DNA of 64,000 nt from Comamonas serinivorans (GTDB lineage Bacteria > Pseudomonadota > Gammaproteobacteria > Burkholderiales > Burkholderiaceae_C): positions 1,096,835 through 1,160,834 of the forward strand of contig NZ_CP021455.1 in NCBI RefSeq assembly GCF_002158865.1. Reading direction: 5' to 3'. The notes under the pieces were generated by a model, which saw nothing but the letters and a program-made list of their open reading frames with translations, had not been told where the DNA came from and did no database searches. Positions within the stretch are counted from its first letter, which is position 1. Every line of letters starts with the position of its first letter. Shown here one piece after another: positions 538-60,100 of the stretch. Made by a program: the position numbers and the translations under genes.

Positions 538-596
538 TCAAGGGTATGACTGTGCTTCCGTTGTTTCTACATCGGCAATGAGGCGATACTGCGCAT
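538..596. repeat. R1 nested-palindrome intergenic repeat unit
   Basis: GGGTATGACTG..CTTCCGTT..ATCGGCAATG..GCGATACTGCGC; overlaps the ATG of the next ORF. Confidence 0.6.
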
Positions 597-1095
597 GATG
601 CATCCCGACGCCACGACCCACACCAATCCCGCTTCGTCGGATGCTCGGGCCACCTTGCGCCTGCACGGCCTGGTGCCTTGCGGGGCCTGGGCGCCCGGCC
701 GCTACGCCAGCGTGAGCCATTTGCGCGACCAATGCGCGTTTGGCCTCGCCTACGAGGTGCAGGCCGATTGGCGCACGCGGCCGCATGTGGTGTACGCCTT
801 CGTCGCCGGCGAGGCGGTGCTCTATGTCGGCGAAACCTCGGCCGGCATGGCGGCGCGCTTTGCCGGTTACCGCTACGGCAACCCCCTGGTCAGCGACACG
901 GACAACCGTGTCAAGCTCGCCCTCACGCGCACCCTGCAGGCGGGCGGCAGCGTGGCCATCTGGGCCACGCAACCGCAGGCCAGCCTCAGCCTGCCGGACG
1001 GCACGGTGTTGACCGTGCCCGCCAGCAAGCCGCTGGAGGAGGTCCTGATCGCGCGGATTCGGCCCGAGCTGAATGTGAAAATGCTCGCTGTCTGA
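595..1095 (+). CDS. hypothetical protein with divergent GIY-YIG-like nuclease motifs
   Basis: VVYAFVAGEAVLYVGET ... ARFAGYR ... EEVLIARIRPELN matches GIY-(10aa)-YVG, R, E, N spacing. Confidence 0.45.
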   Translation: MMHPDATTHTNPASSDARATLRLHGLVPCGAWAPGRYASVSHLRDQCAFGLAYEVQADWRTRPHVVYAFVAGEAVLYVGETSAGMAARFAGYRYGNPLVSDTDNRVKLALTRTLQAGGSVAIWATQPQASLSLPDGTVLTVPASKPLEEVLIARIRPELNVKMLAV

Positions 1096-1112
1096 TTTGC
1101 TGGATCGCCCCC

Positions 1113-1760
1113 ATGCCTCAACCCCACGACACCGCCACGTCCCTGTCTTCGCCCGTCACGTTCACGCGCCTGGTGCGGGCGCGCCTGTGGCGCTGGGCCG
1201 GTTTGATGGGGGTGCTGGGGCTCACGGCCTGCGCCTCGGACGATTTCATGCGGCAGTACCAGGACATCGGCCGCACGACCTTGCCCGCGCTGCCCACGCC
1301 GCGGGCCACGGCCGAACCAGGCACCTGCCGGGACGTGACGCGCATGACCGCCCGCGACCTCTACGGCGAGTGGCGGCTCAGCCTGCTCAAGCCCAACGTG
1401 GGCGGCCACATGCGGCTGTCGCAGCACCCCGAGTTCTCGGAAAGCCTGCGCGGCCACATCGCCTACGGCGACGTGCAGGCCATTGCCTCGGGCGACGTCA
1501 CGGCCGGCCAGTTCGACCTCGACGAGTCTGCGGACGGCAAGCGCATGACCGCCACCTGGTCCGGCAAACTGACGCCCGCCGCCTGTGGCAACGAAATCCG
1601 CGGCACCTGGACCGACCTGGAGCGCGACCAGAGCAGCGCTTTCGTGCTTCGGCGCGTGGGCGGCGCAGCGGCTGCGGCCGACGCCGCCAGCACGCCCGTG
1701 CGCGACGAACTGCCCGATGGCGTGCAGGTGTTGCCGGTGCCCGAACCGTCGCTGAACTGA
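1113..1760 (+). CDS. putative lipoprotein (lipobox LTAC)
   Basis: N-terminus MPQPHD..WAGLMGVLGLTACASDD; start chosen at ATG 1113 within longer ORF 678..1760. Confidence 0.55.
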   Translation: MPQPHDTATSLSSPVTFTRLVRARLWRWAGLMGVLGLTACASDDFMRQYQDIGRTTLPALPTPRATAEPGTCRDVTRMTARDLYGEWRLSLLKPNVGGHMRLSQHPEFSESLRGHIAYGDVQAIASGDVTAGQFDLDESADGKRMTATWSGKLTPAACGNEIRGTWTDLERDQSSAFVLRRVGGAAAAADAASTPVRDELPDGVQVLPVPEPSLN

Positions 1761-1829
1761 GGCCTCAGCCGGGGCTGCGCGTGGCGCGGCTCCGGGCCGC
1801 GTCGGGCAAACAAACGCGTGGGATGCGGA

Positions 1830-2927: not shown

Positions 2928-2982
2928 TGGGGGTATGGGCGAGTTGTCGATTTTGTGTCATCGGAAATATGGCCATACCCTG
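2928..2982. repeat. R1 repeat unit
   Basis: GGGGGTATGGGCGAG TTGTCGATtttgtgtcATCGGAAATATGG CCATACCCTG. Confidence 0.65.
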
Positions 2983-3800: not shown

Positions 3801-4061
3801 CAGCGAGCCACGCCTGGACAAGCGATTTTCGGGGCAGCCGTCGCGGCAGCGCAGAGCGATCTGTGCGTCACCGCGCGCTCCGTTCATGGCGTCTGGGCAT
3901 CGATGCAGCCGTTTCGCGTTACACGGGTGGTGTCGCGGGCTGTGTGCGCTGCATCGCGGTGCGGCCGCATAGACGCCGTTGGCGGGGTCTGCAGCCGCTC
4001 GGGTTGACCGGAGCCGCCGCCAGGGCCGGTTAGGATGCTGCGCTTTGCACGGACCCGAACC

Positions 4062-4376
4062 ATGAGCTTTGCCGACAACCTGCGTGACCTGCCCGCCATC
4101 GACCACCTGGCCGCCCTCGAGCTGCTGGACGAGGCGGGCCAGGTGGTGGCCTCGATCCCGAACCAGCCCGGCAAGGCGGGTTCGCTCAAGCTGTATGCGG
4201 CCCTGGCCGCCCGCCACGGCGCCATCAACCTGGCCGCCGCCGAAGAAGGCCTGGCCTTGTTCGCCGAACACACCGAGGATGCGCGCCAGCACCCGGGCAG
4301 CCACCCCAACATCGACCGCCTGTTCGAGGTCATCGCCACGGGCAAGCCCCTGTCGGTGCGCCTGTTGCCGGCTTGA
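4062..4376 (+). CDS. hypothetical protein (small conserved-hypothetical-like)
   Basis: ORF with good GC3; start at MSFADNL. Confidence 0.5.
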   Translation: MSFADNLRDLPAIDHLAALELLDEAGQVVASIPNQPGKAGSLKLYAALAARHGAINLAAAEEGLALFAEHTEDARQHPGSHPNIDRLFEVIATGKPLSVRLLPA

Positions 4377-4406
4377 GGGGAGCCTCCTCGCGGTGTTTTG
4401 ATTCAA

Positions 4407-4459
4407 GGGGGTATGCGCCCATTTCCGTTTAAAGAAAAACGCAAGTGGATGCATACCCC
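4407..4459. repeat. R1 repeat unit
   Basis: GGGGGTATGCGCCC ATTTCCGTTTaaagaaAAACGcaaGTGG ATGCATACCCC. Confidence 0.65.
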
Positions 4460-4617: not shown

Positions 4618-6603
4618 TCACTCGGGTGAGGGCGTCGGATCAGGGTGCCGCCTGCAGCCGTCAGTCGCCGGCTGCAACAGGTCTTGCACGCGTGCGCGCA
4701 TGGTCTCCAGCGTCTGCGCTTCGGGGGGCATGGCCTCGCCCACGCTCAGGCCCACCGGGCTGAAGGTCCCACGCCGGAATGGCTTGGTCATGGCGCCCGT
4801 GGGTTCGATGCGCGAGAAGTAGCTGCCCCAGAGGTTGGTCAGCGCCATGGGCACCACGGGCACGCTCAGGCCGTCGGCGCGCGCCTGCTCCAGGATCTTC
4901 AGCACCCCGCTCTTGAACGCACCCAGCTCGCCGTCGCGCGTGATGGCGCCTTCGGGGAAGATGGCCAGCAGCTCGCCTTCGCGCAGCACCTGGGCGGCTT
5001 CGACGAAGGCGCGCTCGTAGGCCGCGGGGTCGTCGCGTGCGGGGGCGATGGGGATGGCCTTGGCGAGCTTGAACAGCCAGCCCAGCACGGGCACCTTGAA
5101 GATCTGGTGGTCCATGATGAAGCGGATGGGCCGCGGGCTGGCCGCCATCAGCAGCACGGCGTCGATGAAGCTGACGTGGTTGGCGATGAGCACGGCCGGA
5201 CCGTCGGCCGGGATGTGGTCACGCCCGGTGATGCGGAAGCGGTACACCAGCTTGGTGAGCACCCAGGCGTGAAAGCGCAGCCAGTACTCGGGCACCAGGA
5301 AGAAGATGTAGGCCGCCACCAGCGCATTGGCGATGCCGGTGAACAGGAAGATCTGCGGGATGGAGAAGCCGGCCTGCAGCAGCGCGCCCGCGATCACGGC
5401 CGAGGCGATCATGAACAGCGCGTTGAGGATGTTGTTGGCCGCGATGATGCGCGCGCGGTGCGAGGGCCGGGCGCGCAGCTGGATGAGCGCGTACATGGGC
5501 ACGCTGAACAGGCCGGTGAACATCGACATCAGGCCCAGGTCGGCCATCACGCGCCAGTGCGCGCCCTGTTGCAGAAAGCCGCCCACGTCGAACAGGCCAC
5601 TGGCGGGCGGCGCGGGCAGGCTGCGCGTGGCGAAGAACAGGTCGATGGCGAACACCGTCATGCCGATGGCGCCCACGGGCACCAGCCCGATCTCGACCTG
5701 GTGGCCCGACAGCTTTTCGCACAGCAGCGCCCCCACGCCGATGCCGACCGAGAACACGGCCAGCAGCAGCGAGGCGACGTGGGCGTCGCAGTGCAGCACT
5801 TCTTTGGCAAAGGCCGGAAACTGGCTGAGGAACACAGCGCCGAAGAACCACATCCACGAGATGCCCAGCAGCGAGCGGAACACGGCCAGCTGCTCGTGCG
5901 CCAGGCGCAGGTTGCGCCAGGTTTCGGTCACAGGGTTCCAGTTCACCTGCAAGCCGGGGTCGGTGGCCGGCGACACAGGGATGAACTGCGCCGCAAGCCG
6001 CCCCAGCAGGGCCAGCACCACGCACGAGATGCCCACCCATTCGGGCCCCACCTGCGGCACCACCACCAGCACCCCGCCCACCAGCTGGCCCAGCAAGATG
6101 GCGACGAAGGTGCCCATTTCGACCATGCCGTTGCCGCCCGTCAGTTCGCGCTCGGACAGGTGCTGCGGCAGGTAGGCGAACTTCACCGGGCCGAACAGGG
6201 TGGAGTGCAGGCCCATGAGGAAGGTGCACAGCAGCAGCACCGGCACGTTGGCGCTGAAGAAGCCCCAGGCCGCCAGGGCCATGATGGCCACCTCCAGCCA
6301 TTTGACGAAGCGGATCAGCGCGCGCTTTTCCAGCTTGTCGGCCAGCTGGCCGCTGGTGGCCGAGAACACCAGATAGGGCAGGATGAACAGCGCGCCGATC
6401 ACCAGGCCCGCCATGTCGGCCGGCAGCCAGCTCACCTGCAGCATGTAGGTCACCATCACGGTGAACGCGAACTTGAAGAGGTTGTCGTTCGCGGCGCCGG
6501 CAAACTGGGTCCAAAAAAACGGCGCAAAGCGGCGCTGGCCCAGCAAGGCGAACTGCCCGGAGGGCGCTTGGCCGGCCTGGGCCTGGCGGGTCGATTCGGT
6601 CAT
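4618..6603 (-). CDS. MFS transporter fused to 1-acyl-sn-glycerol-3-phosphate acyltransferase domain (LplT/Aas-like lysophospholipid transporter-acyltransferase)
   Basis: 12-TM MFS N-half; C-half has acyltransferase motifs LIANHVSFIDAV and FPEGAITRDG. Confidence 0.8.
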   Translation of the reverse strand: MTESTRQAQAGQAPSGQFALLGQRRFAPFFWTQFAGAANDNLFKFAFTVMVTYMLQVSWLPADMAGLVIGALFILPYLVFSATSGQLADKLEKRALIRFVKWLEVAIMALAAWGFFSANVPVLLLCTFLMGLHSTLFGPVKFAYLPQHLSERELTGGNGMVEMGTFVAILLGQLVGGVLVVVPQVGPEWVGISCVVLALLGRLAAQFIPVSPATDPGLQVNWNPVTETWRNLRLAHEQLAVFRSLLGISWMWFFGAVFLSQFPAFAKEVLHCDAHVASLLLAVFSVGIGVGALLCEKLSGHQVEIGLVPVGAIGMTVFAIDLFFATRSLPAPPASGLFDVGGFLQQGAHWRVMADLGLMSMFTGLFSVPMYALIQLRARPSHRARIIAANNILNALFMIASAVIAGALLQAGFSIPQIFLFTGIANALVAAYIFFLVPEYWLRFHAWVLTKLVYRFRITGRDHIPADGPAVLIANHVSFIDAVLLMAASPRPIRFIMDHQIFKVPVLGWLFKLAKAIPIAPARDDPAAYERAFVEAAQVLREGELLAIFPEGAITRDGELGAFKSGVLKILEQARADGLSVPVVPMALTNLWGSYFSRIEPTGAMTKPFRRGTFSPVGLSVGEAMPPEAQTLETMRARVQDLLQPATDGCRRHPDPTPSPE

Positions 6604-6901: not shown

Positions 6902-7753
6902 TCAGCGCCGCCGCATGGCCCAGCCGATGGGCACCACCGCCAGCGCCGCCACCGCGTGCTTGAGGCTGTGGCCGGCCACCCAGCCCTGGGTCAGCTCGAA
7001 CACGGCGTGGTCGCCCAGCTCCAGCACCTTGGCGGCGATGTAGGCCAGCACCACCCAAAGCCAGCGCACCCCCAGGCCGTCCGGCCGGTTGGGACTCAGG
7101 CCCAGACCCACCAGCAGCGCCAAGCCGGCGCCTTGCACCAGCGCCCAGGGCGTCATGTTGCCCACCTGCCAAGCCCACAGGGCCGCGCTGGCCGAGGCCA
7201 GCAGCAGCGGCAGCGGCAGCGCGCGACCCAGGCGGGGGCTCACGCGGTCGGCCACAGCCAGGCCGATCACGCCGGCAAAGGCCAGCGACATGCCGAGCCG
7301 GTCCACGGCCAGGCCCGCATCGCCGGGCGCCCAGTGGTAGACGCTGGAGCCCGCGGCCGTGGCGATCAGGCCCAGCACCACCCATCGCACGAGCACCATG
7401 CAAGTATGGTCGGCCATTCGATCATGGATGAAGGTAGATGAACCGATACCCGATGAAAAGATGGCGGCTCGCCGCCACAGCCACAGCGCCGCCAGGACGA
7501 ACGGTGCGTTGCTGAGCACGTCCAGGGCGTGCGGCAGTGCGCCCCAGGCGCGCTGGTCGGCGAAGTCGTGGTAGCCGGCGGGCAAGGGTGCGGCGGGCAG
7601 GCCGGCGGCCAGCACCACGGCGGCCAGCAAGGCCAGCAGCACGAGCCACTCGGCGCGGCGCAAGGGACCGAGGGCAGGGTGGGCGGGTTGGACGACGCCG
7701 GCCACGCCGGTAGACGGGGACGGGCGAGCGGCGGGCGGGCGAGCGTGTGGCAT
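6902..7753 (-). CDS. ceramidase-family-like membrane protein carrying an in-frame R1 repeat insertion; start uncertain
   Basis: N-term PAGYHDFADQRAWG..SNAPFVLAALW, later YHWAPGD and GHSLKH; 18 codons (7402-7455) have atypical low GC3. Confidence 0.5.
   Translation of the reverse strand: MPHARPPAARPSPSTGVAGVVQPAHPALGPLRRAEWLVLLALLAAVVLAAGLPAAPLPAGYHDFADQRAWGALPHALDVLSNAPFVLAALWLWRRAAIFSSGIGSSTFIHDRMADHTCMVLVRWVVLGLIATAAGSSVYHWAPGDAGLAVDRLGMSLAFAGVIGLAVADRVSPRLGRALPLPLLLASASAALWAWQVGNMTPWALVQGAGLALLVGLGLSPNRPDGLGVRWLWVVLAYIAAKVLELGDHAVFELTQGWVAGHSLKHAVAALAVVPIGWAMRRR
7402..7455. repeat. R1 repeat unit, degenerate, located inside the ceramidase-like ORF
   Basis: AAGTATGGTCGGCC...ACCGATACCCGATG; 54 nt = 18 codons, no stop in the gene frame. 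Confidence 0.45.
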
Positions 7754-7901
7754 TAGGCGCGACAAGGGGTGGACGCAGAAGTGGCCTGCACTGTGCGCAA
7801 GGCGCCGCCAACCGTCGCGTACATTGCGCCTCGGTGGCGCGGCTTCACGCTCAGGGTATCGTCGCACGCGCCCGAACCATCGACACGGAGGGAGGATTTC
7901 G

Positions 7902-8633
7902 ATGAGCACCACGCAGGACCTGGTCACCGCACTCAAACACGAACTGAAGGCCGCGCAGATGACCTATGCGGACCTGGCCAAGGAGCTCGGCATGGCCGAG
8001 TCCAGCGTCAAACGCATGCTGGCCAAAGGCGACATGCCGCTGACCCGCATCGACGCCATCTGCCGTGCGCTCAAGCTCGACTTTGCCGACCTGGCGCGCC
8101 GCGTGGCCGACGCCCAGCCCCTGCTCAGCCAGCTCACGCAGGCCCAGGAGGTGGCCGTGGTGGCGGACAAAAAGCTGCTGCTGTGCGCCATCTGCGTGCT
8201 GAGCCACTGGACGCTGGAGCAGATCTGCGAGGCCTACCGCATCGACGAGCCCGAGTGCATCCGCCACCTGGTGATGCTCGACCGCATCGGCATCATCGAG
8301 CTGCGGCCGCTGAACCGCTACCGCCTGAAGCTGGCCAAGACCTTCCGCTGGCGGCCCAACGGCCCGGTGATGGATTTCTTCCGCGAGAACGTGCTGCTGG
8401 ATTACTACGGCGGCAGCTTCGACCGCGACGACGAGGTGCTGCAGCTGGTGCACGGCACCATCGGCCACAGCATGGGGCCGGTGTTCGTCGAACGCATCCA
8501 GCGCATTGCGCAGGACTTTGCCAAGCAGCACCTGGCCGATCAGAAGCTGCCTGACGACATGCGCGAGGGCTACACCCTGCTGCTGTCCATGCGGCGCTGG
8601 GAATTCGCGGCCTTCACCGCCTTGCGGCGCTGA
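7902..8633 (+). CDS. XRE-family HTH transcriptional regulator with C-terminal domain
   Basis: N-terminal HTH (TYADLAKELGMAESSVKRMLAKG); RBS GGAGGGAGG upstream. Confidence 0.75.
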   Translation: MSTTQDLVTALKHELKAAQMTYADLAKELGMAESSVKRMLAKGDMPLTRIDAICRALKLDFADLARRVADAQPLLSQLTQAQEVAVVADKKLLLCAICVLSHWTLEQICEAYRIDEPECIRHLVMLDRIGIIELRPLNRYRLKLAKTFRWRPNGPVMDFFRENVLLDYYGGSFDRDDEVLQLVHGTIGHSMGPVFVERIQRIAQDFAKQHLADQKLPDDMREGYTLLLSMRRWEFAAFTALRR

Positions 8634-8770
8634 TCGGGGCGCGGCCCTGGACCCGGGTGTGGACCATCCCGCCGGCGGGGGAAGTCGGGCGCCGGGCTGA
8701 CGACCTGCGGGTGCCGCACATCCCGGCAAGGGTGTGAGGTCGCTGCACGGGCCTAGGGTGGAGATGTCGT

Positions 8771-8824
8771 GCAGTATGGGGCGGTCTCCGGTGCAAAGAA
8801 AACGACAGTTGGCGAATACGGGGC
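8771..8824. repeat. R1 repeat unit (degenerate)
   Basis: GCAGTATGGGGCGG TCTCCGGTGcaaagaaAACGacagTTGG CGAATACGGGGC. Confidence 0.45.
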
Positions 8825-8868
8825 GAGTGCCGATGAAGCAATCGTGACGGTGGTGGCCCGCAGCTGAG

Positions 8869-8882
8869 CTGCATTGCAGTCT
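8869..8882. promoter_or_regulatory. CTGCATTGCAG-TCT perfect 11-bp palindrome, copy 1
   Basis: CTGCA-T-TGCAG followed by TCT; identical 14-mer recurs at 9014. Confidence 0.35.
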
Positions 8883-9013
8883 TGTGGGTCTTGCCCAGTC
8901 GCCCCAGACCAGCGCGGCCGCCAGCGGCCTCGCAGGGCGCTGGCCAGGCCTGCGCGCGGCGTTGAGCATGACGCACCGAGCCGCCAGCGTGTGGTCGCTG
9001 GGGTGTGCCAGAA

Positions 9014-9027
9014 CTGCATTGCAGTCT
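9014..9027. promoter_or_regulatory. CTGCATTGCAG-TCT perfect 11-bp palindrome, copy 2
   Basis: Identical 14-mer 145 bp downstream of copy 1, ~240 bp upstream of the SDR gene. Confidence 0.35.
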
Positions 9028-9263
9028 CATACACAACCTCCAGCCACCGCAAACCGGGTGCGGCCACCTAGACTGGCGCGAGCGGTCAACGGCATGGTGG
9101 GCCCCAGGCCACGTTGAGGTGATACCGGGCCGGCACGAGGGGCTGCATGGCAGTCCCATGAATCGACCCCCAGCACCTGAGCGTGGGCCAGCCCATCGCC
9201 AGACCCAGGTTGCCCGGGCTGCATGCCGGGCGCCCCTCTTTCACCTGTTCCAGCGGAGTTTCC

Positions 9264-10220: not shown

Positions 10221-10272
10221 GCAGTATGCATGGCTTGCCGTTTGAAGATGAACGGCAATGGCTGCATACTGC
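10221..10272. repeat. R1 repeat unit (near-perfect nested palindrome)
   Basis: GCAGTATGCAtggcTTGCCGTTtgaagatgAACGGCAAtggcTGCATACTGC. Confidence 0.75.
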
Positions 10273-17142: not shown

Positions 17143-17195
17143 CCAGTATGGGTTGGTTGCCGTTGATGAAAAAACGGCAATGAGCTTATACCCCC
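17143..17195. repeat. R1 repeat unit
   Basis: CCAGTATGGGTTGG TTGCCGTTgatgaaaaAACGGCAATG AGCTTATACCCCC. Confidence 0.7.
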
Positions 17196-17219: not shown

Positions 17220-18149
17220 ATGAGCATCGGCCGCAGCATTCGCCTGTTCCTGGTGGACGGGTCTTCCAATGGCCTGCTGACCGCAGAAATCATGAACTGG
17301 ACCGGCCACGTGCTGACCGGTCCGCGCAGCAAGCTGGCCGAGGTGGTGCGGCGGCCCGAGTGCGCGCGCACCGGCATCTACTTCCTGATCGGCCCCGATC
17401 CCGACAACGCCTTGCTGACGCGCGTCTACATCGGTGAATCCGACGATGTGGCGGAGCGCCTCAAGCAGCACAACCGGCCCGAAACCCCGGACGGCAGGGG
17501 CGGCAAGGACTTCTGGGAGCGCGTGTGCCTGGTCACCAGCAAGGACATGAACCTGACCAAGGCGCACGCCAAGTACCTGGAGAGCAAGCTCATCGGCATC
17601 GCCACGGCTGCGGGGCGCTGCGTGGTGTCCAACGGCACGGCGCACGACTACGGGGCGCTGCCCGAGTCCGACCGCGCCGACATGGCGTACTTCCTCGACC
17701 AGATCCGCACCGTGCTGCCCGTGCTGGGCTTCGACTTTCTGCACGAGGCGCGACGGGCGCCGTCCACCTTGCCCGTCCCGCCGGTGGCCGACGCGCAAGG
17801 CTTCGAGATGAGCGTGCCGCGCCATGGCATCCAGGCCTTCGCCAAAGAGGTGGATGGCGAGTTCGTGGTGCAGCAGGGCTCGCGCGCACGCGGCAGCTGG
17901 ATCGGCGGCATCAGCGGCTACCAGGGGCTGTTTGAACAGCTGGTGGCCAGCGGCATCCTGCAGGCCGACGGGGCCGACCACTGCCGGTTTGCCGAGGACC
18001 ACGCCTTCAGCAGCCCCAGTGCCGCCGCGTCGGTGGTGTGCGGCCGCATCGCCAACGGCCGCACCAGCTGGCTGGTGCAAGGCAGCTTGCAAACCTATGC
18101 CGATTGGCAGGACGCCCAGCTCAAGGCCGACGGGGCGCCAGCCGAGTGA
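17220..18149 (+). CDS. GIY-YIG nuclease domain protein with C-terminal DUF4357-like domain
   Basis: TGIYFLIG..RVYIGESDDVAERLKQHNR canonical GIY-YIG; C-terminal conserved domain. Confidence 0.8.
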   Translation: MSIGRSIRLFLVDGSSNGLLTAEIMNWTGHVLTGPRSKLAEVVRRPECARTGIYFLIGPDPDNALLTRVYIGESDDVAERLKQHNRPETPDGRGGKDFWERVCLVTSKDMNLTKAHAKYLESKLIGIATAAGRCVVSNGTAHDYGALPESDRADMAYFLDQIRTVLPVLGFDFLHEARRAPSTLPVPPVADAQGFEMSVPRHGIQAFAKEVDGEFVVQQGSRARGSWIGGISGYQGLFEQLVASGILQADGADHCRFAEDHAFSSPSAAASVVCGRIANGRTSWLVQGSLQTYADWQDAQLKADGAPAE

Positions 18150-18518: not shown

Positions 18519-19406
18519 TCAGCGCCCGAAGGCGAACACGGCCGGGTCGTGCTTGCTGGGCAGGGCCACGGCATTCGCCTCGGCGTTCGCCCCGCTGGCG
18601 CGCAGCCAGCTGCGCCACTGGCTCACGCTGCCGCTGCGCGTGTGGCCGCCCGGCAGGGTCAGGCCCCAGCTCAGCGACAGCCGCGTGTTGGGCTGCAAGC
18701 CTTGCACCAGCGCCTGCAGCAGCGCGGCGTTGCGGAACGGGGTTTCGATGGCGATCTGCGTTTGCCCGGTTTTGAGCGCGTGCGCCTCCAGCTGCTTGAT
18801 GCGCGTGCTGCGTTGGCTGGCGTCCTGCGGCAGGTAGCCGATGAAGGCAAAGCTCTGCCCGTTCAGGCCGCTGGCGGCCAGCGCCAGCAGCAGCGACACC
18901 GGGCCGGGCAGGACGACCACGGGCACGCCCAGGGCATGTGCGGCCCGCACCACGGCGCTGCCGGGGTCGGCAATCGCGGGCATGCCGGCCTCGCTGATCA
19001 GGCCCACGTCCAGGCCTTGCTGGGTGGGGGCCAGCCAGGCGCGGGCCGCGGCCTCGGTCTGGCGGCCGGCCTCGTGGGTGCCGTCGTGGTCGCCCTGCTT
19101 GTGCGCGGCGCGCGGCAGTTCGCTGATCTGCATCTGCTGCAGCGGCACGGCCAGCGGGCAGACCTCGCCGATGCGTTTGAGCACGGCCCGGGCCGTCTTG
19201 GCGTTTTCGCACACCCAGTGCGTGATCTGCGAGGCGGTGTGCAGCACGCCGTGGGGCAGCACCTCGGTGATGGGCACACCCGCTTCGCAGCCGAAGTCCA
19301 GCGGCGCCGGCACCAGCACCAGGCGCCCCGGCGCACGCGGGCTTGGTTGCTCGCTGGGGGATGAAGAAACTTCGGCAGTATCGGGATTTTCCGTTGAGTG
19401 CGTCAT
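18519..19406 (-). CDS. tetrapyrrole-methylase-fold SAM-dependent methyltransferase (RsmI-like); N-terminus uncertain
   Basis: LVLVPAPLDFG ~ LYVVPTPIGN; YLPQDASQR, TPFRN; first ~25 codons have low GC3 and lie inside an R1 repeat. Confidence 0.65.
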   Translation of the reverse strand: MTHSTENPDTAEVSSSPSEQPSPRAPGRLVLVPAPLDFGCEAGVPITEVLPHGVLHTASQITHWVCENAKTARAVLKRIGEVCPLAVPLQQMQISELPRAAHKQGDHDGTHEAGRQTEAAARAWLAPTQQGLDVGLISEAGMPAIADPGSAVVRAAHALGVPVVVLPGPVSLLLALAASGLNGQSFAFIGYLPQDASQRSTRIKQLEAHALKTGQTQIAIETPFRNAALLQALVQGLQPNTRLSLSWGLTLPGGHTRSGSVSQWRSWLRASGANAEANAVALPSKHDPAVFAFGR

Positions 19407-19427
19407 CGGTAATGCTAGATACTGGGT
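19375..19427. repeat. R1 repeat unit spanning the Maf stop and the RsmI-like ATG
   Basis: GCAGTATCGGGA TTTTCCGTTgagtgcgtcATCGGtAATG CTAGATACTGGGTC. Confidence 0.6.
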
Positions 19428-20047
19428 CAGATGGGCATGCCGACGGCACGCAGCAAGCGGCAGGTGCGGATCAGCGGCAGGCCGATGAGGGCCGTGGGGT
19501 CGTCGTTGTCGATGGCGTCGAGCAGGCTGATGCCCAGGCCTTCGCTCTTGGCGCTGCCGGCGCAGTCGTAGGGCTGCTCGGCGTGCAGGTAGTGCTCGAT
19601 CTCGGCCTCCGTCAGCGTGCGAAAGCGCACGGCCACCTCCGCCACCTCGTGCTGCACAAAGCCGATGTCCTGGCAGACCACGGCCACGGCGGTGTGAAAC
19701 CGCACGGTCTGCCCGCTCATGCGCGTGAGCTGCGCCACCGCACGCTCGTGCGTGCCAGGCTTGCCCAGCGGCTCGCCATGCAGGTCGGCCACCTGGTCCG
19801 ACCCGATGACCGCGGCGTCGGGCCGCTGGCGCGCGACCGCCTGGGCCTTGGCCACCGCCAGGCGCAGCGCCAGGGCGCCGGGCAGCTCGCCCGCCAGCGG
19901 CGTCTCGTCCACCTCGGGCCCGATCACCTCGAAGGGCAAGCGCAGCCGGTGCATCAGCTCGGCCCGGTAGCGCGAGGTGGAGCCCAGCACCAGCGGACGC
20001 GGCAGGTTGAGGGACGAATTGAGGGAGATTTCGTGGACGTGCGACAT
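19427..20047 (-). CDS. maf: Maf-like nucleoside triphosphate pyrophosphatase
   Basis: LVLGSTSRYRAELM..IGSDQV..EGLGISLLD. Confidence 0.8.
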   Translation of the reverse strand: MSHVHEISLNSSLNLPRPLVLGSTSRYRAELMHRLRLPFEVIGPEVDETPLAGELPGALALRLAVAKAQAVARQRPDAAVIGSDQVADLHGEPLGKPGTHERAVAQLTRMSGQTVRFHTAVAVVCQDIGFVQHEVAEVAVRFRTLTEAEIEHYLHAEQPYDCAGSAKSEGLGISLLDAIDNDDPTALIGLPLIRTCRLLRAVGMPI

Positions 20048-34965: not shown

Positions 34966-34966
34966 T

Positions 34967-36024: not shown

Positions 36025-36041
36025 CTGGCACGGCCGTTGCG
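36025..36041 (+). promoter_or_regulatory. sigma54 (RpoN) promoter, near-consensus
   Basis: CTGGCACGGCCGTTGCG = YTGGCACGr-N3-TTGC with exact -24/-12 spacing; ~15 nt upstream of the tRNA-like element. Confidence 0.6.
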
Positions 36042-36055
36042 AAGGATGAGGTGAA

Positions 36056-36149: not shown

Positions 36150-36422
36150 AAACCCGGGGGCGCGACGGCGCGAGGCAGGCCTTGACGCGGCGGCCGTGTC
36201 GGCAAGGGTGCAGCGAGAAGCGGCTACCAGGCCGGTTGCCACGCATCGCAGCCCGTCGGCCAGCCCGACCGGCAGGGGATGAGGTCAGGTGTGCAACGGT
36301 CTGGCGCAGTTCAAGGAGAACGCCCGACCATGCATCGGGAAGGTGCTGGACAAGCCAGCCGCCAGACCGTTGCGCATGGGCCAGTCCCCGTCCCGATCCA
36401 CACGAACACAGGGAGAGCGGCC

Positions 36423-39320: not shown

Positions 39321-39710
39321 GCAGGTCGGGTGAGGTCAGGTGAAGCCAGCGGGGCCATGGGGCCCCATCTTCCAGGTTGGCCCGAATGGTGACCGTGGGT
39401 CTGGGTGCCGGTGCTGCCGCCCCAGGCGTTCGCTGTGGGCGCCTGGCGGACTGGCGCCGAGGAACGGAGGAGCTTGCGCGACAATCCGGCATCCGGTCCG
39501 GGCGAGGCTCGCTAGGACATGGCCATGGCGCGCGGCGGTCAGCACGCGGCGGTGTCGGCCCCGCAGCCGCGCGATCCCGGTGGTCGGGTGCAAGTGCCCT
39601 GTCGGCTTGCGTTCCACGCCAACAGGCCTGCTGCCGTGCCTCGTGCCATGTCAACCGTTGCTTGACGGTCGGCGGGCCCCGTGCCCACGCCGTGTTGTTC
39701 AGAAGTACCC

Positions 39711-40454: not shown

Positions 40455-40460
40455 TACTCC
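40407..40460. repeat. R1 repeat unit (variant inner)
   Basis: GAAGAGTATGGCGACA ATCGCGATGACGATTCAACGGGAAGGCATT GATACTCC. Confidence 0.55.
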
Positions 40461-40987
40461 ATTTGATGTGGCGCTTGCTGAGGGCTGCTTGCCCGACACC
40501 GGAAGGCTGGCGTCGACGCAGGGACATGACGCGTGGCCAGCGGTGCATGGGCTCGCCAGCCGCCCGCACAGCGCCCCCAACCCGCTGACTGGGCGTCCTG
40601 ATGCAGCAGGCCTGGCTCGACCTGCCCGTGCTCTTTCGCCTGCATGCGCAGGCGCGTGGCCAACAGGTGGCGCAGCCCGAGCGGGCCGATGGGGTGTTCG
40701 CCATCCAGGGCACGGCCAGCGCGCAGCCTCACACCGTCCGAGACGGACCGCATCCGGGCCGATTGCCTGTGAAGGCGGGCTTGCAAGGGGCGCTGCATGG
40801 ATCGCTGGCGCGCTGGATGAATCAAGCCAGTTTGGCTTGCGGTGGCTGAGCCGTGGCGAGGCGCAGGCGCCCTCGACGCCAAGTGCTTGATCCGGCAAGG
40901 GTTTGCGCGGCTCGCCTGTTGATTTGGCGGGGCCTGGCACGCCGCGTGCAACGAGGATGGCCACACACAACTCAACTGGGAGCACAC

Positions 40988-42193
40988 ATGCCAACCGACG
41001 ACCAGGTGGAGGCGAAGCCGCGTCACCGTGACCCAGCTCGCACGGCCACCGCCGCAGACACCAAAAGCGTGACCGGCGCAGCGCAGACGGGCCGTGGCGC
41101 AGCCATCGAGATCGATGGCTCGCAGGGCGAGGGCGGCGGGCAGATCCTGCGCACGGCGCTGGCCTTGTCCATGATCACCGGCCAGCCGCTGCACCTGCGC
41201 GCCATCCGCGCCAAGCGGCCCAAGCCCGGGCTCATGCGCCAGCACCTGATGTGCGTGCAGGCGGCCGCGCAGGTCAGCGGGGCCCACATCAGCGGGGCCG
41301 AGCTGGGGGCCACCGAGTTGCGCTTCGCGCCGGGCCCGGTGCGGGCGAGCGCCTACGAATTTGCCATGGCCAGCGCAGGCAGCTGCATGCTGGTGCTGCA
41401 GACCGTGCTGCCGGCGTTGATGCTGGCCGATGCCCCCAGCACGCTGGTGCTGCGGGGCGGCACGCACAACCCCATGGCGCCCAGCTTCCACTTTGTGCGC
41501 GATGCCTTTGCGCCGCTGGTGCAGCGCCTGGGCGCCGGCCTGACGCTGCAGCTGCAGCGGCTGGGCTTTTACCCCGCAGGCGGTGGCGAGGTCACGGCCA
41601 CCATCACGCCTGCGGCCCGCCTGACCCCGTTCGACCTGACCGAGCGTGGCGAGCTGCAGCAGGGCGATGCTCTGTGCCTGACGCCGGGGCTGTCGGGGTC
41701 GATCGCGCGCCGCGAGCTGACGGCGCTGGGCCAGGCCATGGGCTGGGGCGAGGACCGCTTGCGCTTTGGCGAGGCCAGGCAGCACGAGGGGCCGGGCAAT
41801 GCCTTGATCGCCCGCCTGCGCTACGCCCACGTGACCGAGGTGTTCGTCGAGCTTGGGGCCCGCAACCTGTCGTCGGAGCAGGTGGCCGGCAAGCTGGTGC
41901 AGGCCATCCGGGCGTTTCAACGCCGGCCAGGTGCCGCGGTGGGCCCACACTTGGCCGACCAGCTGGTGCTGCTGCAGGCCCTGGCCGTGTGGCAGGCCGG
42001 ACGGACCGGCAGCCAGGCGGATGCGCCCCACGCCGATGTGCCCCAGGCGGATGTGCCGCAAGCACGCTTCTCGTGCAGCGAGGTGACCGAGCACTTGCGC
42101 ACCAACTGCGTGGTGATCGAACGCTTTCTGCCCGTGCGCTGCACGCTGACCCAGGGCCCTGTGTCCCGGGTGACGGTGCGCTGGGCGGGGTGA
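40988..42193 (+). CDS. rtcA: RNA 3'-terminal phosphate cyclase
   Basis: IEIDGSQGEGGGQILRTALALSMITGQPLHLRAIRAKRPKPGL matches RtcA N-terminal signature; ~40-aa N-extension if ATG 40988 (SD GGGAG) is used. Confidence 0.85.
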   Translation: MPTDDQVEAKPRHRDPARTATAADTKSVTGAAQTGRGAAIEIDGSQGEGGGQILRTALALSMITGQPLHLRAIRAKRPKPGLMRQHLMCVQAAAQVSGAHISGAELGATELRFAPGPVRASAYEFAMASAGSCMLVLQTVLPALMLADAPSTLVLRGGTHNPMAPSFHFVRDAFAPLVQRLGAGLTLQLQRLGFYPAGGGEVTATITPAARLTPFDLTERGELQQGDALCLTPGLSGSIARRELTALGQAMGWGEDRLRFGEARQHEGPGNALIARLRYAHVTEVFVELGARNLSSEQVAGKLVQAIRAFQRRPGAAVGPHLADQLVLLQALAVWQAGRTGSQADAPHADVPQADVPQARFSCSEVTEHLRTNCVVIERFLPVRCTLTQGPVSRVTVRWAG

Positions 42194-47041: not shown

Positions 47042-47158
47042 AGCTGTTGAATGACCTGCGGCATGCCAGACGACCAACCGGTCCATCGCAGCCCGCGCGT
47101 GGGGCCACCCCAGGTGGTCATAATGGCCCCCGTCTCAACTGACCTGGATGCCCTTCGA

Positions 47159-47657: not shown

Positions 47658-47683
47658 AGCCGACCTCAGGGTCGGCTTTTTTG
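47658..47683 (+). terminator. Rho-independent terminator
   Basis: AGCCGACC-tcag-GGTCGGCT followed by TTTTTTG, 32 nt after FKBP stop. Confidence 0.65.
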
Positions 47684-55706: not shown

Positions 55707-55759
55707 TGAGTATGGCCTCATTCCCGTTGTTCATTGAACGGGAACGAGGCCATACTCAT
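55707..55759. repeat. R1 repeat unit (reverse orientation, near-perfect)
   Basis: GTGAGTATGGCCTCATTCCCGTTgttcattgAACGGGAAcGAGGCCATACTCAT. Confidence 0.75.
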
Positions 55760-55796: not shown

Positions 55797-57044
55797 TTAC
55801 AGCCCGGTTTCCAGCGCCAGCAGGTCGTCCACGGTCTGGCGGCGGCGAATCAGCCGCGCCTGGCCGCCATCGACCAGCACCTCGGCCGCCAGCGGGCGCG
55901 TGTTGTAGTTGCTGGACATGCTGGCGCCATACGCGCCGGTGTCGTGAATCACCAGCAAGTCGCCGACCTGCGCGGCCGGCAGCATGCGCGGCAGCACCAC
56001 GCCGCCTTCGCCCTGGGTGAACACGTCCCCCGATTCGCACAGCGGGCCCGCCACCACGCTGGCCACCTCGGCGGCCTGGCTGCCATCCCGGCGCAGCAGG
56101 CCCATGGCGTGGTAGCTGCCGTACATGGAGGGGCGCATCAGTTCGTTGAAGCCCGTGTCGACCAGCACGAAATGCGAGCGGCCCTGGTTCTTGACGGCGC
56201 GCACCTGGCCCAGCAGCACGCCCGATTCGGCCACGAGGAAACGGCCGGGCTCGATCTCCAGGTGCAGGGCATGGCCCACGATGGCCTCGGCCTGCTGACG
56301 CGCGGCATGCCACAGGCTGAAGTAGTGCGCGGTGTCGATGCGATCGCCCCCCGCCTGGTAGGGGATGGACAGCCCGCCGCCGGCCGACAGGGCCTGCAGG
56401 TCCATGCCCGCGGCGCGGGTTTGCTCGACCAGGCCGACCATGGCGCCGCAGACGTTCTGCAGGTGGGCGTAGTCCACGCCCGAGCCGATGTGCATGTGCA
56501 GGCCGACCAGCGTCAAGCCATTGCGCTGCACGGCGGCCAGGGCCGCGGCCAGGTCGCCGTGCCAGATGCCGTGCTTGCTGTGCTCGCCGCCGGTGTTGGT
56601 CTTGTTGCTGTGGCCGTGGCCGAAGCCGGGGTTGATGCGCAGCCACACGGCATGGCCGGGCGAGGCCGCGCCGAGCTGGTCCAGCATGTCGATGGAGCCG
56701 GCGTTCACGGGCACGCGGTGTTCGACCACGGTGGCGAGCGTGGCCGGGTCGAACACGTCGGCCGTGAAGACGATGGGGGCGGGCTCGTCAAACCCGGGCT
56801 GGTAGCCGGCGGCCAGCGCGCGCAGGATCTCGCCGCGCGAGACGGCATCGACCCGGACGCCGCGCTCGCGCATCAGCGACAGGATGTGGATGTTGGAGCA
56901 GGCTTTTTGCGCAAAGCGCACGGTGTCGAAGGCCTGCAGCTGGGCGATGCGCTCGCGGATGGTGGCGGCGTCATACACCCACAGCGGGGTGCCGAACTCG
57001 TCGGCCAGGGCCCAGAGCTGGGCGGCAGAAAAAGGATTGGACAT
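55797..57044 (-). CDS. lysA: diaminopimelate decarboxylase
   Basis: PLP-binding barrel, HIGSG, C-terminal CESGD. Confidence 0.9.
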   Translation of the reverse strand: MSNPFSAAQLWALADEFGTPLWVYDAATIRERIAQLQAFDTVRFAQKACSNIHILSLMRERGVRVDAVSRGEILRALAAGYQPGFDEPAPIVFTADVFDPATLATVVEHRVPVNAGSIDMLDQLGAASPGHAVWLRINPGFGHGHSNKTNTGGEHSKHGIWHGDLAAALAAVQRNGLTLVGLHMHIGSGVDYAHLQNVCGAMVGLVEQTRAAGMDLQALSAGGGLSIPYQAGGDRIDTAHYFSLWHAARQQAEAIVGHALHLEIEPGRFLVAESGVLLGQVRAVKNQGRSHFVLVDTGFNELMRPSMYGSYHAMGLLRRDGSQAAEVASVVAGPLCESGDVFTQGEGGVVLPRMLPAAQVGDLLVIHDTGAYGASMSSNYNTRPLAAEVLVDGGQARLIRRRQTVDDLLALETGL

Positions 57045-57232
57045 GGGCAGGTGGCGTGGCGTCGGCCGGTGCAAGGCTGCGTGGCCGGTGAACCCGCGAT
57101 TGTCGCCGCAACGGCGCCAGGGGGCGCCGTGCGGGTGTGTCATTGAGGCGATGCAACAGGCGCCGGTGGCCTGCAGGCCATGGGCGGCATCGGCGGCCTT
57201 GCGCCGTGCGGGCTTGCCTGGGTGTCAGCCCC

Positions 57233-58801
57233 TTATCCGTTGTCGTCGCCGCCCTCGGGCAGGCGCTCGATCCGCACGGTCTTGATGCGCTGGGGATCCA
57301 CCTCGTCCACCGTGAACGCGTAGCCCTGGTGAACCGTGCTGGCGCCGCGCGCGGGCAGCTCACCAAACACGCGCAGCAGGTAGCCGGCCAGCGAATAGGC
57401 CTCGCTGCCCTGCACCAGGCCGTCCACGCCGAGGGTGCTTTCCAGCTGGTGCAGGTCAGCCGTGCCGGCCACGCGCCAGCGCCCGTCGCCGGCCGGCTGG
57501 ATCTCCAGCTGTTCGTCCTCGTCGGGGAATTCGCCGGCAATCGCTTCCAGCACGTCGATGGGGGTGACGATGCCCTTGAGGGTGCCGTCCTCGTCGTTGA
57601 CCAGCACCAGTTGGCCCTTGGCGCTTCGCAACACGCCGATCACGTCGATGACCAGCATGGATTCGGGCACGAACACGGGCTGGCGCAGGTAGCCGTTGGG
57701 CTCCAGCCGGCCCCTCTCTTCGATGGCGCCGAGCAGGTCCTTGGCGCGGGCCACGCCCAGCACCTGGTCCAGCGAGCCCTGGCACACCGGGTACATGCCG
57801 TGCGGCGCGGCCAGCAGCTTGCGTCGGTTCACGGCGCCATCGTCATCGACGTCCACCCACGAGATGTTGGAGCGCAAGGTCATGATGGAGCGCACGTTGC
57901 GCTCGGCCAGGCGCAGCACGCCGCCCACCATGTGGCGCTCTTCGGCCGCGAAGGCCGGTTCCGGGGCATCCGGCTCGGCTCCGCCACCCGCGGTGGCCGC
58001 CTGGGTGGCCTGCGCCGTCGTGCGGTGCCCCAACAGGCTCAGCACGCGCTCGGCCGTGCGTTGGCGCAGTGGCAGGCGCGCCTCGTGCTTGGCCGCGTTG
58101 CGGTTGGCCAGCTGGTTGAAGAACTCGATCAGGATGGAGAAACCGATCGCCGCGTACAGGTAGCCCTTGGGCAGGTGGAAGCCCAGGCCCTCGGCCACCA
58201 GCGACAAGCCGATCATGAGCAGGAAGCTCAGGCACAGCACGACGACGGTGGGGTGCGCGTTGACGAAGCGCGTGAGCGGCTTGGAGGCCAGCAGCATCAC
58301 GCCGATGGAGATGACCACGGCGGCCATCATCACGGGCAGCTGGTCCACCATGCCGACGGCGGTGATCACGGCGTCGAGCGAGAACACCGCGTCGAGCACC
58401 ACGATCTGCGCCACCACGAGCGAGAAGCTCGAGTAGGCGACTGTGGCGGTGGCCTGGTGCTGCACGCCTTCCAGCCGCTCGTGCAACTCCGAGGTGGCCT
58501 TGAACAGCAGGAACAGGCCGCCAAAGAGCAGGATCAGGTCGCGTCCCGAGAACGGATGGCCGAACACGTGGAACAGCGGTGACGTGAGCGTCACCAGCCA
58601 GGAGATCACCGACAGCAGGCCCAGGCGCATGATCAGCGCGAGGCTCAGTCCGATCACGCGGGCGCGGTCACGCTGGTGCGGCGGCAGCTTCTCGGCCAGG
58701 ATGGCGATGAAGATCAGGTTGTCGATGCCCAGGACGATTTCCAGGACGACGAGCGTGGCCAGGCCGACCCAGACGGCCGGGTCGGTCAGTAATTCAAGCA
58801 T
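57233..58801 (-). CDS. TerC-family membrane protein with CBS pair and CorC/HlyC C-terminal domain
   Basis: N-terminal TerC TM core, two CBS motifs, C-terminal transporter-associated domain. Confidence 0.85.
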
Positions 58802-59112
58802 GGTGGGGATGGGTTAGGCGCGAGACCGGCCAGGCCGGCAAGGGCTGCCGGCAGCGGTGCGCACAAGAAGATGGGGGACGACCAGCACGGGATGCTGGCG
58901 GGTGGTGTCGAGCAAGGCCGTCGACTGGGGGGCTCGGCGTCGCTTGACGCAGAAGGAGAGTCCATGCGCAAAATTTTATCGGGGCCTCGAATGTCCCCGA
59001 GAGGCCCGGGCCGAAGGGGGCTTTAGCGGGCCGCCGAAGGCTGGTGCCATCGACCGGATGTCCGACAGGCATGGTCGGTCCTTCTATGCTTGGCCGTTTG
59101 AGCGGATCTCGC

Positions 59113-59703
59113 ATGCACCTTTTTCCACCGGCACACCCCTTGCTCACGCCGCGGCTGCAACTGCGGCGTTTTCGCGACACCGACTTCGCCGCGTATGCCG
59201 CCTACCACGGTGACCCGCAGGTGTACCGCTTTCTGTACCAGGCCGCACCCGAGGCCGACCGGCTGGGAACGCAGTTCGCCGAGGTGTTGCGCGCACCGTT
59301 CGACGGCGATGGGCACGCCTTGCGCCTGGCGGCCGTGCGCCAGGCCGATGAGGCCGTTGTCGGTGAGGTGCTGCTCAAGATCGCCAGCCTCGCGGCCTTG
59401 CAGCTGGAGGTGGGCTACATCTTCAACCCGCGCTTTGGCGGCCAGGGCTATGCGACTGAGGCGGTGCGCGCCCTGCTGAATTGGGGCTTCGAGGGCATGG
59501 GCGCCCACCGGATCTTTGCGCGGCTGGATGCGCTCAACACGGCCTCTGTCAAGGTGGTGGAGCGCCTGGGCATGCGCCGGGAAGCCCACTTGATCCAGAA
59601 CGACCGGTTCAACGGTGTCTGGGGAGACGAGTACATCCATGCGTTGTTGCGGTCCGAGTGGCCGCAGGTGGCTGTGTGCCCTGGCCAGGGCCCAGCAGGA
59701 TGA
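59113..59703 (+). CDS. GNAT-family N-acetyltransferase
   Basis: RimJ/RimL-like acetyl-CoA motif (FNPRFGGQGYATEAVRALLNWGF). Confidence 0.75.
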   Translation: MHLFPPAHPLLTPRLQLRRFRDTDFAAYAAYHGDPQVYRFLYQAAPEADRLGTQFAEVLRAPFDGDGHALRLAAVRQADEAVVGEVLLKIASLAALQLEVGYIFNPRFGGQGYATEAVRALLNWGFEGMGAHRIFARLDALNTASVKVVERLGMRREAHLIQNDRFNGVWGDEYIHALLRSEWPQVAVCPGQGPAG

Positions 59704-60044
59704 GGTGTTCGGCCTGGGGCAGGCCAGATGCCGGTCGAGCGACCCGGCCTCGGTCCCGATGATGGGGTGGCGAGGCATCGCAGCGCCATCTTGGGTGACT
59801 ACGCGATGGCATCGCCCATGGCGAACACCCTCTGCATGACGTGGGCGGCCACGGGTGTGAGGCTGCGTCTTGCCTGCGCGACCTGGCCGGGGGTCTGCTG
59901 ATGGATGCCATCGGCGTCGTGGCCTTCGCGCCGGTGCTGCTGGCGCGGCGCTGCTGGGCGTGGCCCTGCTGCTGCAACGCAGATCGCCCGCTCACCCGGC
60001 GCTGCAAGCCTGCTGGGCCGTTGTCCAGCCATCCACATCGCAGT

Positions 60045-60100
60045 GCAATTCTTGTGCAGTATGGGTCAACTTCCGTTTGATTGACATCGGATATGCGGGT
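60045..60100. repeat. R1 repeat unit
   Basis: GTGCAGTATGGGTCAA CTTCCGTTTgattgacATCGGATATG CGGGTATACCCATG. Confidence 0.6.

Follow-up and report, generated by a model that had tools for sequence, protein, structure and literature searches.

R1, a dense family of short palindromes at gene ends in Comamonas serinivorans

A 64-kb stretch of the Comamonas serinivorans chromosome (contig NZ_CP021455.1), called the window below, carries a palindromic repeat, designated R1, mostly in the spaces between its genes. The genes were mapped by codon-usage score and checked against Pfam; they include ugd, hisD, metH and rtcR, each of which has an R1 copy just past its stop codon. A repeat search found R1 to be the sole genuine repeat family of the window. 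The copies arrived by insertion, and they sit singly and mostly on the 3' side of genes, as repetitive extragenic palindromic (REP) sequences do. Judged from comparison with relatives, they have kept their boxes, the pairing of an inner helix and a length of 46 nt while their arms and flanks were randomised. The reading favoured here, with a probability of roughly 0.55, is that R1 is an old, vertically inherited, REP-like miniature insertion element specific to one lineage (C. serinivorans and a few uncultured relatives). Its folded strand would be recognised by a REP-associated tyrosine transposase (RAYT), and it would form a 3' hairpin when transcribed.

Geometry, pairing and descent of the copies

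The original prediction of a dense palindromic repeat family has been borne out. Every position that it listed holds a copy (21/21), far above chance, and 21 copies are confirmed in the window. The span from GTAT to ATAC is exactly 46 nt in 20 of them and 45 nt in the copy at 19378 (copies are named by their first coordinate). The palindrome usually extends a further 3 nt on each side, to about 52 nt, and these outer triplets are variable yet complementary (cca/tgg, ggg/ccc, gca/tgc, gga/tcc). The consensus is RGTATGG-N5-TTnCCGTT-N8-AACGGnAATGG-N4-SATACY, in which the invariant or near-invariant positions are G1 T2 A3 T4, C16 G17, T19, A28, C30 G31 and A43 T44 A45 C46. The first tetranucleotide is GTAT in 20 of the 21 copies and GTAC in one (23618). 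A subfamily of inner stems had also been proposed and does exist as a CGAT/ATCG variant, in which A18/T29 replaces T18/A29. The G+C content of R1 is about 50%, against about 70% for the window.

The pattern GTATG-N30-50-CATAC has eight matches in the window, where shuffled sequence predicts 0.03. A covariance model built from all 21 copies finds them again at 32-58 bits, which are self-hits of the model. The informative part of that search, run with filters off, is that the window holds no further copy above 22 bits. All copies are singletons, and the closest neighbours are 1.4 kb apart. The density of about one repeat per 3 kb, which had been called unusually high, is indeed high; going by published counts it lies inside the known range, since Stenotrophomonas SMAG elements occur at about one copy per 3 kb.

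The outermost part of R1 is a helix, NNN-GTAT(G)/(C)ATAC-NNN. Inside it come two arms of some 10 nt, which drift and are only partly paired, then a second helix of 5 bp, CCGTT/AACGG (in general form CCGYY/RRCGG), and finally an A/T-rich loop of 8 nt. This symmetric structure was imposed by hand and then tested by shuffling and by sliding the partners. Over the 21 window copies it pairs 71% of cells, against 35-43% with slid partners, and double-sided changes exceed those in all 500 shuffles. Adding sequences from relatives (described below) gives an alignment of 27 sequences, whose covariation score is 0.273. Shuffles yield 0.184 +/- 0.019 (0/500 reach the observed value) and slid partners 0.11-0.14. 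Positions 19 and 28 can pair in 27/27 sequences, by four types of pair; at 18/29 there are 11 UA, 5 CG and 3 AU pairs, and the closing pair -1/48 swaps between CG and GC. In variable columns Watson-Crick complementarity is 46% within copies and 37% between them (z 3.7). Folding the copies one by one gives a mean dG of -19.6 kcal/mol and a mean z of -3.5. The best, 55710, pairs without a flaw over 22 bp (-40 kcal/mol, z -11), and 10224, 4411 and 54059 also form good hairpins.

The two strands of R1 are not equivalent. The arms on the plus strand have 151 G and 74 C, with G exceeding C in 19 of the 20 copies of 46 nt, and arm mismatches are more often GG than CC (36 vs 9) and more often G.T than A.C (39 vs 23). 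The plus strand is also the G-rich one in five of the six copies that would be transcribed from the minus strand (2933, 19378, 25448, 60059, 7404); the sixth, 55710, is neutral. The overall GC skew of the window is positive, from which we infer that the G-rich strand of R1 is leading-strand sequence. A common orientation for 19 of the 21 copies was considered and dropped, because a blind position-weight-matrix/expectation-maximisation test had many local optima and its best split was 12:8. That test being so fragile, the strand claim is limited to the model-free excess of G over C. One copy (55707 in the original prediction) had been described as reversed. Orientation is in fact weakly defined, and two copies, 4411 and 55710, score better in reverse.

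R1 also occurs in other species. In three uncultured relatives, represented by ENA metagenome contigs (L003, L087 and L089), the HTH_26, ceramidase-like and MFS/acyltransferase genes follow one another as they do in the window. Their HTH proteins are 90-95% identical to those of the window, their MFS proteins 86-89%, and neighbouring proteins overall 82-95%. The contigs hold these 46-nt copies:

L003 4393-4438: within the ceramidase-like orthologue, in frame
L003 2991-3036: downstream of the HTH gene
L003 10080-10125: in a convergent junction
L087 2340-2385: intragenic
L087 652-697: downstream of the HTH gene
L087 4993-5038: 27 nt past the stop of the MFS gene
L089 632-677: intragenic

Conservation in position was thus found for three window copies: 7404 has positional orthologues in L003, L087 and L089, 8774 in L003 and L087, and 4411 in L087. 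Copy 8774 and its L003 counterpart have the derived states CCGGT...CGAC in common. In two orthologous pairs the core is 52-61% identical, against 17-37% for the flanks, and the inner helix has changed in a compensatory way in the relatives, from CCGTT/AACGG to CCGCT/AGCGG or CCGCC/GGCGG. The positional orthologues and the compensatory changes together indicate that R1 is old and vertically inherited, with its boxes, inner pairing and length under constraint. Within the window the closest pair is 17146 and 46990, the maximum identity being about 80-82%. Pairwise identities in variable columns are over-dispersed (p = 0.002), so at least some copies share descent rather than having converged.

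Beyond these relatives the family disappears from view. The strict pattern GTAT-N10-CCGTT-N8-AACGG-N10-ATAC, which matches eight window copies, has only two matches in 185,579 species genomes (an actinobacterial metagenome-assembled genome and Olsenella); both are unrelated G+C-rich hairpins and are put down to chance. A looser pattern has 78 isolated matches in metagenomes, all weak with the covariance model and as many as chance predicts. There is no R1 at the metH loci of Comamonas sp. 4034, C. guangdongensis and an ENA contig encoding a 90% identical MetH, and none was found in Ottowia. One C. guangdongensis contig (14904-14943) has a hairpin, GTATGCAAGT...ACTTGCATAC, whose outer GTATGCA/TGCATAC is as in the R1 copies of relatives. 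It is only 40 nt long and scores 13 bits; the likeness may be fortuitous, or the hairpin may be remotely related to R1. Among plasmids and phages, a BLAST search with two copies returned nothing relevant.

Placement of R1 relative to genes

R1 occupies 8 of the 12 convergent junctions of the window, 11 of the 31 co-directional ones and 1 of the 12 divergent ones. The 3' end of a gene adjoins 19 of the 20 intergenic copies. The copies are as follows (scores are those of the covariance model; dG and z are from folding).

544..589 (+): 6 nt past the stop of a UvrD/Rep-like gene (16-537), 5 nt before ORF 595-1095; 43.0 bits; hairpin decayed, z -0.04
2933..2978 (+): between two minus-strand genes, 26 nt upstream of the start of an M48 peptidase gene (1830-2906) and 144 nt after the LemA stop (3123); 49.6 bits; dG -22.4 kcal/mol, z -3.9; plus-strand arms G 8, C 3
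4411..4456 (-): convergent junction of a DUF2322 gene (4035-4376) and the MFS/acyltransferase gene (4618-6603); 51.2 bits on the minus strand, 47.7 on the plus; dG -28.7 kcal/mol
7404..7449 (+): in frame inside the alkaline-phytoceramidase-like gene, minus-strand ORF 6902-7936 (CCO03_04625)
8774..8819 (+): 140 nt after the stop of the HTH_26 regulator gene (7902-8633); 36.7 bits; hairpin decayed
10224..10269 (+): 24 nt upstream of the start of a DsbA-like gene (10294), 231 nt after the stop of an SDR gene (9992); 47.5 bits; dG -30.1 kcal/mol, z -6.8
17146..17191 (+): 10 nt after the stop of the UDP-glucose dehydrogenase gene ugd (17135), 28 nt before a GIY-YIG/DUF4357 gene (17220); 52.8 bits; dG -25.6 kcal/mol
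19378..19422 (+): the 45-nt variant, 4 nt past the stop of the minus-strand Maf gene (19427-20092); 31.8 bits; dG -18.3 kcal/mol; plus-strand arms G 5, C 2
20874..20919 (+): convergent junction, 11 nt past the stop of the LysE gene (20862); 36.7 bits
23618..23663 (+): 5 nt past the hisD stop (23612); the only copy with GTAC; 47.3 bits
25448..25493 (+): within the long non-coding spacer 24883-25617; a minus-strand DUF4136 gene stops 124 nt away; 46.3 bits; dG -20.8 kcal/mol
30661..30706 (+): 8 nt past the metH stop (30652); the convergent gene 30723-31343 stops 16 nt away; 52.8 bits; dG -25.3 kcal/mol
32612..32657 (+): the sole occupied divergent junction, 30 nt upstream of the start of an SPFH/Band 7 gene (32581); 40.5 bits
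34970..35015 (+): 4 nt past the rtcR stop (34965), 58 nt before a SIMPL gene; 45.2 bits
40412..40457 (+): overlaps the 3' end of the probable ORF 39711-40454, whose TGA stop is element positions 41-43; 43.1 bits
43392..43437 (+): convergent junction, 141 nt after the stop of a purU-like gene (43250); 42.0 bits
46990..47035 (+): between a ferritin-like gene (stop 46669) and an FKBP gene (start about 47051-47123); 54.8 bits
49256..49301 (+): convergent junction, 65 nt after the stop of a DEAD-box helicase gene and 71 nt from that of a LysR gene; 46.7 bits
54059..54104 (+): convergent junction, 58 nt after the stop of a TetR gene and 23 nt from that of an aminotransferase gene; 46.3 bits; dG -28.7 kcal/mol
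55710..55755 (-): a palindrome perfect over 22 bp, 41 nt beyond the stop codon of a decarboxylase gene on the minus strand (55797-57143); 57.8 bits on the minus strand, 54.3 on the plus; dG -40.1 kcal/mol, z -11
60059..60104 (+): a histidine kinase gene on the minus strand (60150-61547) stops 45 nt away; 38.3 bits; hairpin decayed

The statement that most copies start within 0-10 nt of a stop codon was too strong. Seven lie 4-11 nt from one (those of the UvrD/Rep-like gene, ugd, maf, lysE, hisD, metH and rtcR), and an eighth, 40412, contains the stop. The open reading frame (ORF) that ends in 40412 has no Pfam match, and its codon score backs the plus frame up to the copy. Three copies (544, 10224 and 17146) lie 5-28 nt upstream of start codons inside probable operons. 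The gene that begins 28 nt past 17146, directly after ugd, encodes a GIY-YIG plus DUF4357 nuclease-like protein (17220-18149, plus strand). Stretches of 630-840 nt without coding signal occur at 24883-25617, 35803-36644, 8634-9263 and 32582-33312 in a genome that is otherwise compact; three of the four hold R1.

The clearest sign of insertion is the intragenic copy. Copy 7404 encodes ...GIGSSTFIHDRMADHT..., and the codon phase is unbroken on both sides of it. The annotated protein CCO03_04625 includes this peptide. The segment is absent from distant homologues, which makes copy 7404 an insertion. In the loop where the C. serinivorans clade has R1, a ceramidase-like homologue in Ottowia sp. GCA_047975795.1 (contig L004, about 8590-8715) has an in-frame insert that is AT-rich and of another sequence, SILRNKLLNWKQINAAF.... 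That loop may be an insertion hot spot, or it may simply tolerate inserts.

Could R1 be one of the ordinary signals found at gene ends? In the 60 kb that were scanned, terminator-like and promoter-like motifs occur at chance level only, and just two intrinsic terminators are canonical and convincing (4374-4390 and 47658-47677, both on the plus strand). The first of these is a hairpin that lies between a stop codon and copy 4411. None of the 25 terminator-like matches is an R1 hairpin, and one (7478-7461, minus strand) merely abuts copy 7404. An intrinsic (Rho-independent) terminator was rejected, as R1 has about 50% G+C and no T/U run follows it. A promoter was rejected because the distance from TTGCCG (-35) to CATACT (-10) is 24 nt and no promoter-like match falls inside any copy. 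A conserved small ORF from the ATG of GTATGG was rejected too, since such frames stop after 2-11 codons and at varying positions. A binding site for integration host factor (IHF) in the loop was rejected by inspection, there being no consistent WATCAANNNNTTR.

Some features of the window stand apart from R1. A tRNA-like RNA (36068-36139, plus strand; Rfam tRNA, 52.8 bits) has an abnormal anticodon loop according to ARAGORN. It lies in the region 33313-42193, between rtcR/SIMPL and an ORF of 1013 codons without a Pfam match (36279-39320), and RtcA follows both at 40988-42193. This layout recalls the rsr-yrlBA-rtcBA locus of Salmonella, where the Y-RNA-like YrlA has a tRNA-mimic domain. An Rfam match to Bcj11 (Burkholderia small RNA 11) at 5794-5915 (minus strand, 69 bits) falls wholly within the MFS/acyltransferase ORF (4618-6603), whose strand it shares. 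Either the model has caught a conserved stretch of coding sequence, or this is an intragenic small RNA. Upstream of metH is an S-adenosylhomocysteine (SAH) riboswitch (27729-27850, plus strand; Rfam, 48 bits), an expected and ordinary arrangement.

Known repeat systems and a candidate transposase

R1 has no match in Rfam at gathering thresholds, and under permissive settings two copies matched nothing there but generic hairpins (miRNA precursors), with scores well short of threshold. The REP surveys consulted make no mention of it. The likeness to REP sequences and bacterial interspersed mosaic elements (BIMEs) or to Correia/NEMIS elements, which had been suggested on first reading, holds in part. 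R1 is REP-like in being intergenic, dense and placed at the 3' side of genes. It forms no clusters or dimers of the BIME kind, and it is not a Correia/NEMIS element.

The REP superfamilies have a one-sided, unpaired tag, either GTAG (with variants GYAG, GYRG, GTRG, GTMG and GTGG) or CGTC, and consist of 20-40 bp units with a 6-13 bp stem (PMC3733652). GTAG families are found mainly in gammaproteobacteria and CGTC families mainly in alphaproteobacteria (Di Nocera et al., 2013, PMC3733652). R1 resembles these families, as well as the REP/BIME elements of E. coli and the SMAG elements of Stenotrophomonas, in being a short imperfect palindrome of high copy number (hundreds in those systems; 21 counted in 64 kb for R1). 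As with REPs (PMC3733652), it is extragenic, lies mainly between unidirectional and convergent ORFs and is mostly downstream of coding regions. G.T pairs in the stems, occasional intragenic copies, species- or genus-specific families and a RAYT-type gene annotated in the genome are further points in common. However, the tag of R1 is GTAT, is base-paired and stands at both ends (GTAT/ATAC). In addition, the unit is 46-52 nt, and the stem has about 19-22 positions (up to 22 paired) with a drifting middle. Whereas REPs and BIMEs form head-to-head or tail-to-tail dimers and clusters, R1 never does (21/21 singletons). Unlike most GTAG and CGTC families, R1 has a betaproteobacterial host.

R1 also recalls the REPIN-RAYT system (Bertels and Rainey, 2011, PMC3116915; bioRxiv 10.1101/2021.07.10.451892), where two inverted arms around a short spacer give a long hairpin. 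Vertical inheritance and long persistence in one lineage are shared features, as is a candidate transposase gene that would be single-copy (at least one among the annotation entries listed). Yet the arms of R1 (GTATGGnnnnnTTGCCGTT) are not self-complementary by inspection, so that no arm is itself a palindromic REP, and the copies of R1 have drifted much further apart (57% mean identity) than those of a REPIN population, which cluster around one master sequence.

A Correia element measures 100-155 bp. It is bounded by terminal inverted repeats of 26 bp, duplicates a TA target, contains an IHF site and has ends that resemble promoters. Like these Neisseria elements (Correia/NEMIS), R1 is a miniature inverted repeat that is abundant in intergenic DNA, probably co-transcribed with its neighbours and capable of forming a hairpin. 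Unlike them, it is 46-52 nt long, its flanking triplets are inverted complements rather than direct repeats, and it has neither a TA duplication nor a promoter-like match. BRE is an intergenic repeat of Comamonadaceae and Bordetella that, like R1, is sometimes found inside ORFs (Hot et al., 2011, PMC3110155). A BRE unit measures about 90 bp, is often tandem and reaches no more than 29 copies per genome (PMC3110155); its sequence and architecture are unrelated to R1. The spaced motifs of Acidovorax and Polaromonas (PMC5217627) were considered too and are different elements. R1 is therefore a new family of an ordinary element type: it works like a REP, fails membership of the catalogued families and is not surprising in kind.

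If R1 is REP-like, where is its transposase? No transposase is encoded in the window (no Y1 domain by Pfam). A look-up elsewhere in the genome, as had been advised for an IS200/RAYT-like gene, was more fruitful. The annotation of strain SP-35 lists orf00815_1, a protein of 222 aa whose best match is 'transposase IS200 [Comamonas sp. B-9]' at 62% identity and which is assigned to KEGG K07491; its gene adjoins gltB (PMC6307125, supplementary file 2). K07491 is rayT (PMC10878065), and at least one K07491 gene, orf00815_1, is among the annotation entries listed. In the same annotation table rtcR is orf01072 (PMC6307125), which places orf00815_1 about 250 ORFs from the window. As the transposase of R1 it is a lead, not a result.

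What might read R1?

The mechanism that we favour begins with the folded single strand of R1, which would still be recognised by a protein. The likeliest candidate would be a RAYT-type HUH/Y1 transposase (K07491). Such an enzyme would have spread R1 and may still maintain the family. Where R1 is transcribed in 3' untranslated regions and intercistronic spacers, its hairpin might block 3'-5' exonucleases, or it might mark an mRNA end or processing site, by analogy with enterobacterial REPs. The rarity of canonical terminators in the window is counted in favour of this scheme.

Several observations weigh against it. RNAalifold alone finds no consensus structure for the 21 copies. Six of them (544, 7404, 8774, 23618, 40412 and 60059) fold no better than shuffled sequence and have kept their boxes nonetheless, so recognition of double-stranded DNA fits at least as well as recognition of a hairpin. 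The copies are also strongly diverged, with a mean pairwise identity of 57% overall and 38% in variable columns, and no near-identical pair suggests recent transposition. The G-richness of the plus strand, whatever the direction of transcription, argues against selection purely on RNA. The tag has T in its fourth position, outside all the GTAG variants described, and it is paired and present at both ends. Finally, K07491 is assigned by homology in KEGG and also covers ordinary IS200 transposases.

What if the palindrome reflects the symmetry of a protein rather than a hairpin? In this scenario R1 is a duplex-DNA site maintained by the host. A protein that organises the chromosome or controls its topology (gyrase-type or nucleoid-associated) would bind the four boxes of GTAT-N10-CCGTT-N8-AACGG-N10-ATAC as a dimer or tetramer at gene ends, where supercoils accumulate. 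This is the main rival, even if an unlikely one, and its best support is that the six hairpin-dead copies keep all boxes; boxes and the exact 46-nt spacing are invariant even where hairpin z is about 0. The boxes are likewise kept at orthologous sites in other species while arms and flanks randomise, and complementarity within copies is only modestly above that between copies (46% vs 37%). Each occupied junction has one copy, with enrichment at convergent junctions, and by our own arithmetic 42 bp, or about four helical turns, separate the centres of the outer boxes. However, a protein that reads bases needs no covariation, unless its specificity co-evolved, and R1 covaries at -1/48 (CG/GC) and 18/29 (UA, CG, AU). 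G.T wobbles are frequent (39 vs 23 A.C), the in-frame gene insertion and the subfamily structure point to a mobile origin, and no candidate protein has been identified.

A bolder idea, and a doubtful one, is that R1 is no longer, or never was, a selfish repeat but a 'punctuation' signal of the host in a small clade of comamonads. A dedicated protein would mark gene ends by reading the GTAT/ATAC and CCGYY/RRCGG boxes, which span exactly 46 nt, either on the folded strand exposed during replication or on the duplex. If true, this would explain why boxes and length are kept at orthologous sites while the neighbouring proteins diverge by 10-18%, why there is exactly one copy at each occupied convergent junction (8/12), and why the arms are G-rich on one chromosome strand irrespective of the direction of transcription.

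Perhaps R1 was never mobile and acts purely as RNA, as a lineage-specific terminator or a 3'-end or processing hairpin evolved by the host (for an RNA-binding protein or RNase), bidirectional between convergent genes. The placement fits: a 3' gene end lies beside 19 of the 20 intergenic copies, 8 of the 12 convergent junctions are occupied and seven copies begin 4-11 nt past a stop codon. So does the scarcity of other terminators, since hairpin-plus-T-run matches are at chance level with only two convincing, and a palindrome folds in transcripts of either direction. Nevertheless, this seems quite improbable. No T/U run follows the elements, many stems are weak, and Rfam has no matching family. 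Copies 544, 10224 and 17146 stand 5-28 nt upstream of starts in probable operons, one copy is inside a coding region, and G-richness tracks the chromosome strand rather than the transcribed strand in five of the six copies that would be read from the minus strand. The remaining alternative, that chance or base composition produced R1 in the AT-rich spacers of a genome with 70% G+C, can point to spacers that are locally AT-richer and to GATG-like words that recur around the copies, but it is already refuted by the statistics: eight exact pattern matches against 0.03 expected, eight invariant positions over 21 copies at a fixed 46-nt span, and orthologous copies in other species.

As a REP-like element, R1 adds a palindromic betaproteobacterial family that is neither GTAG nor CGTC to the REP catalogue, with a density near the top of those reported. 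It is worth masking and annotating in C. serinivorans, where it enters at least one and probably two coding regions (CCO03_04625 and the probable ORF 39711-40454). Its old copies let constraint be read directly, in that several species retain, at orthologous sites, the boxes, the inner pairing and the length of exactly 46 nt while the rest drifts. This makes R1 a convenient system for asking what maintains REP-like elements: recognition by a transposase, a role as RNA or a role as DNA.

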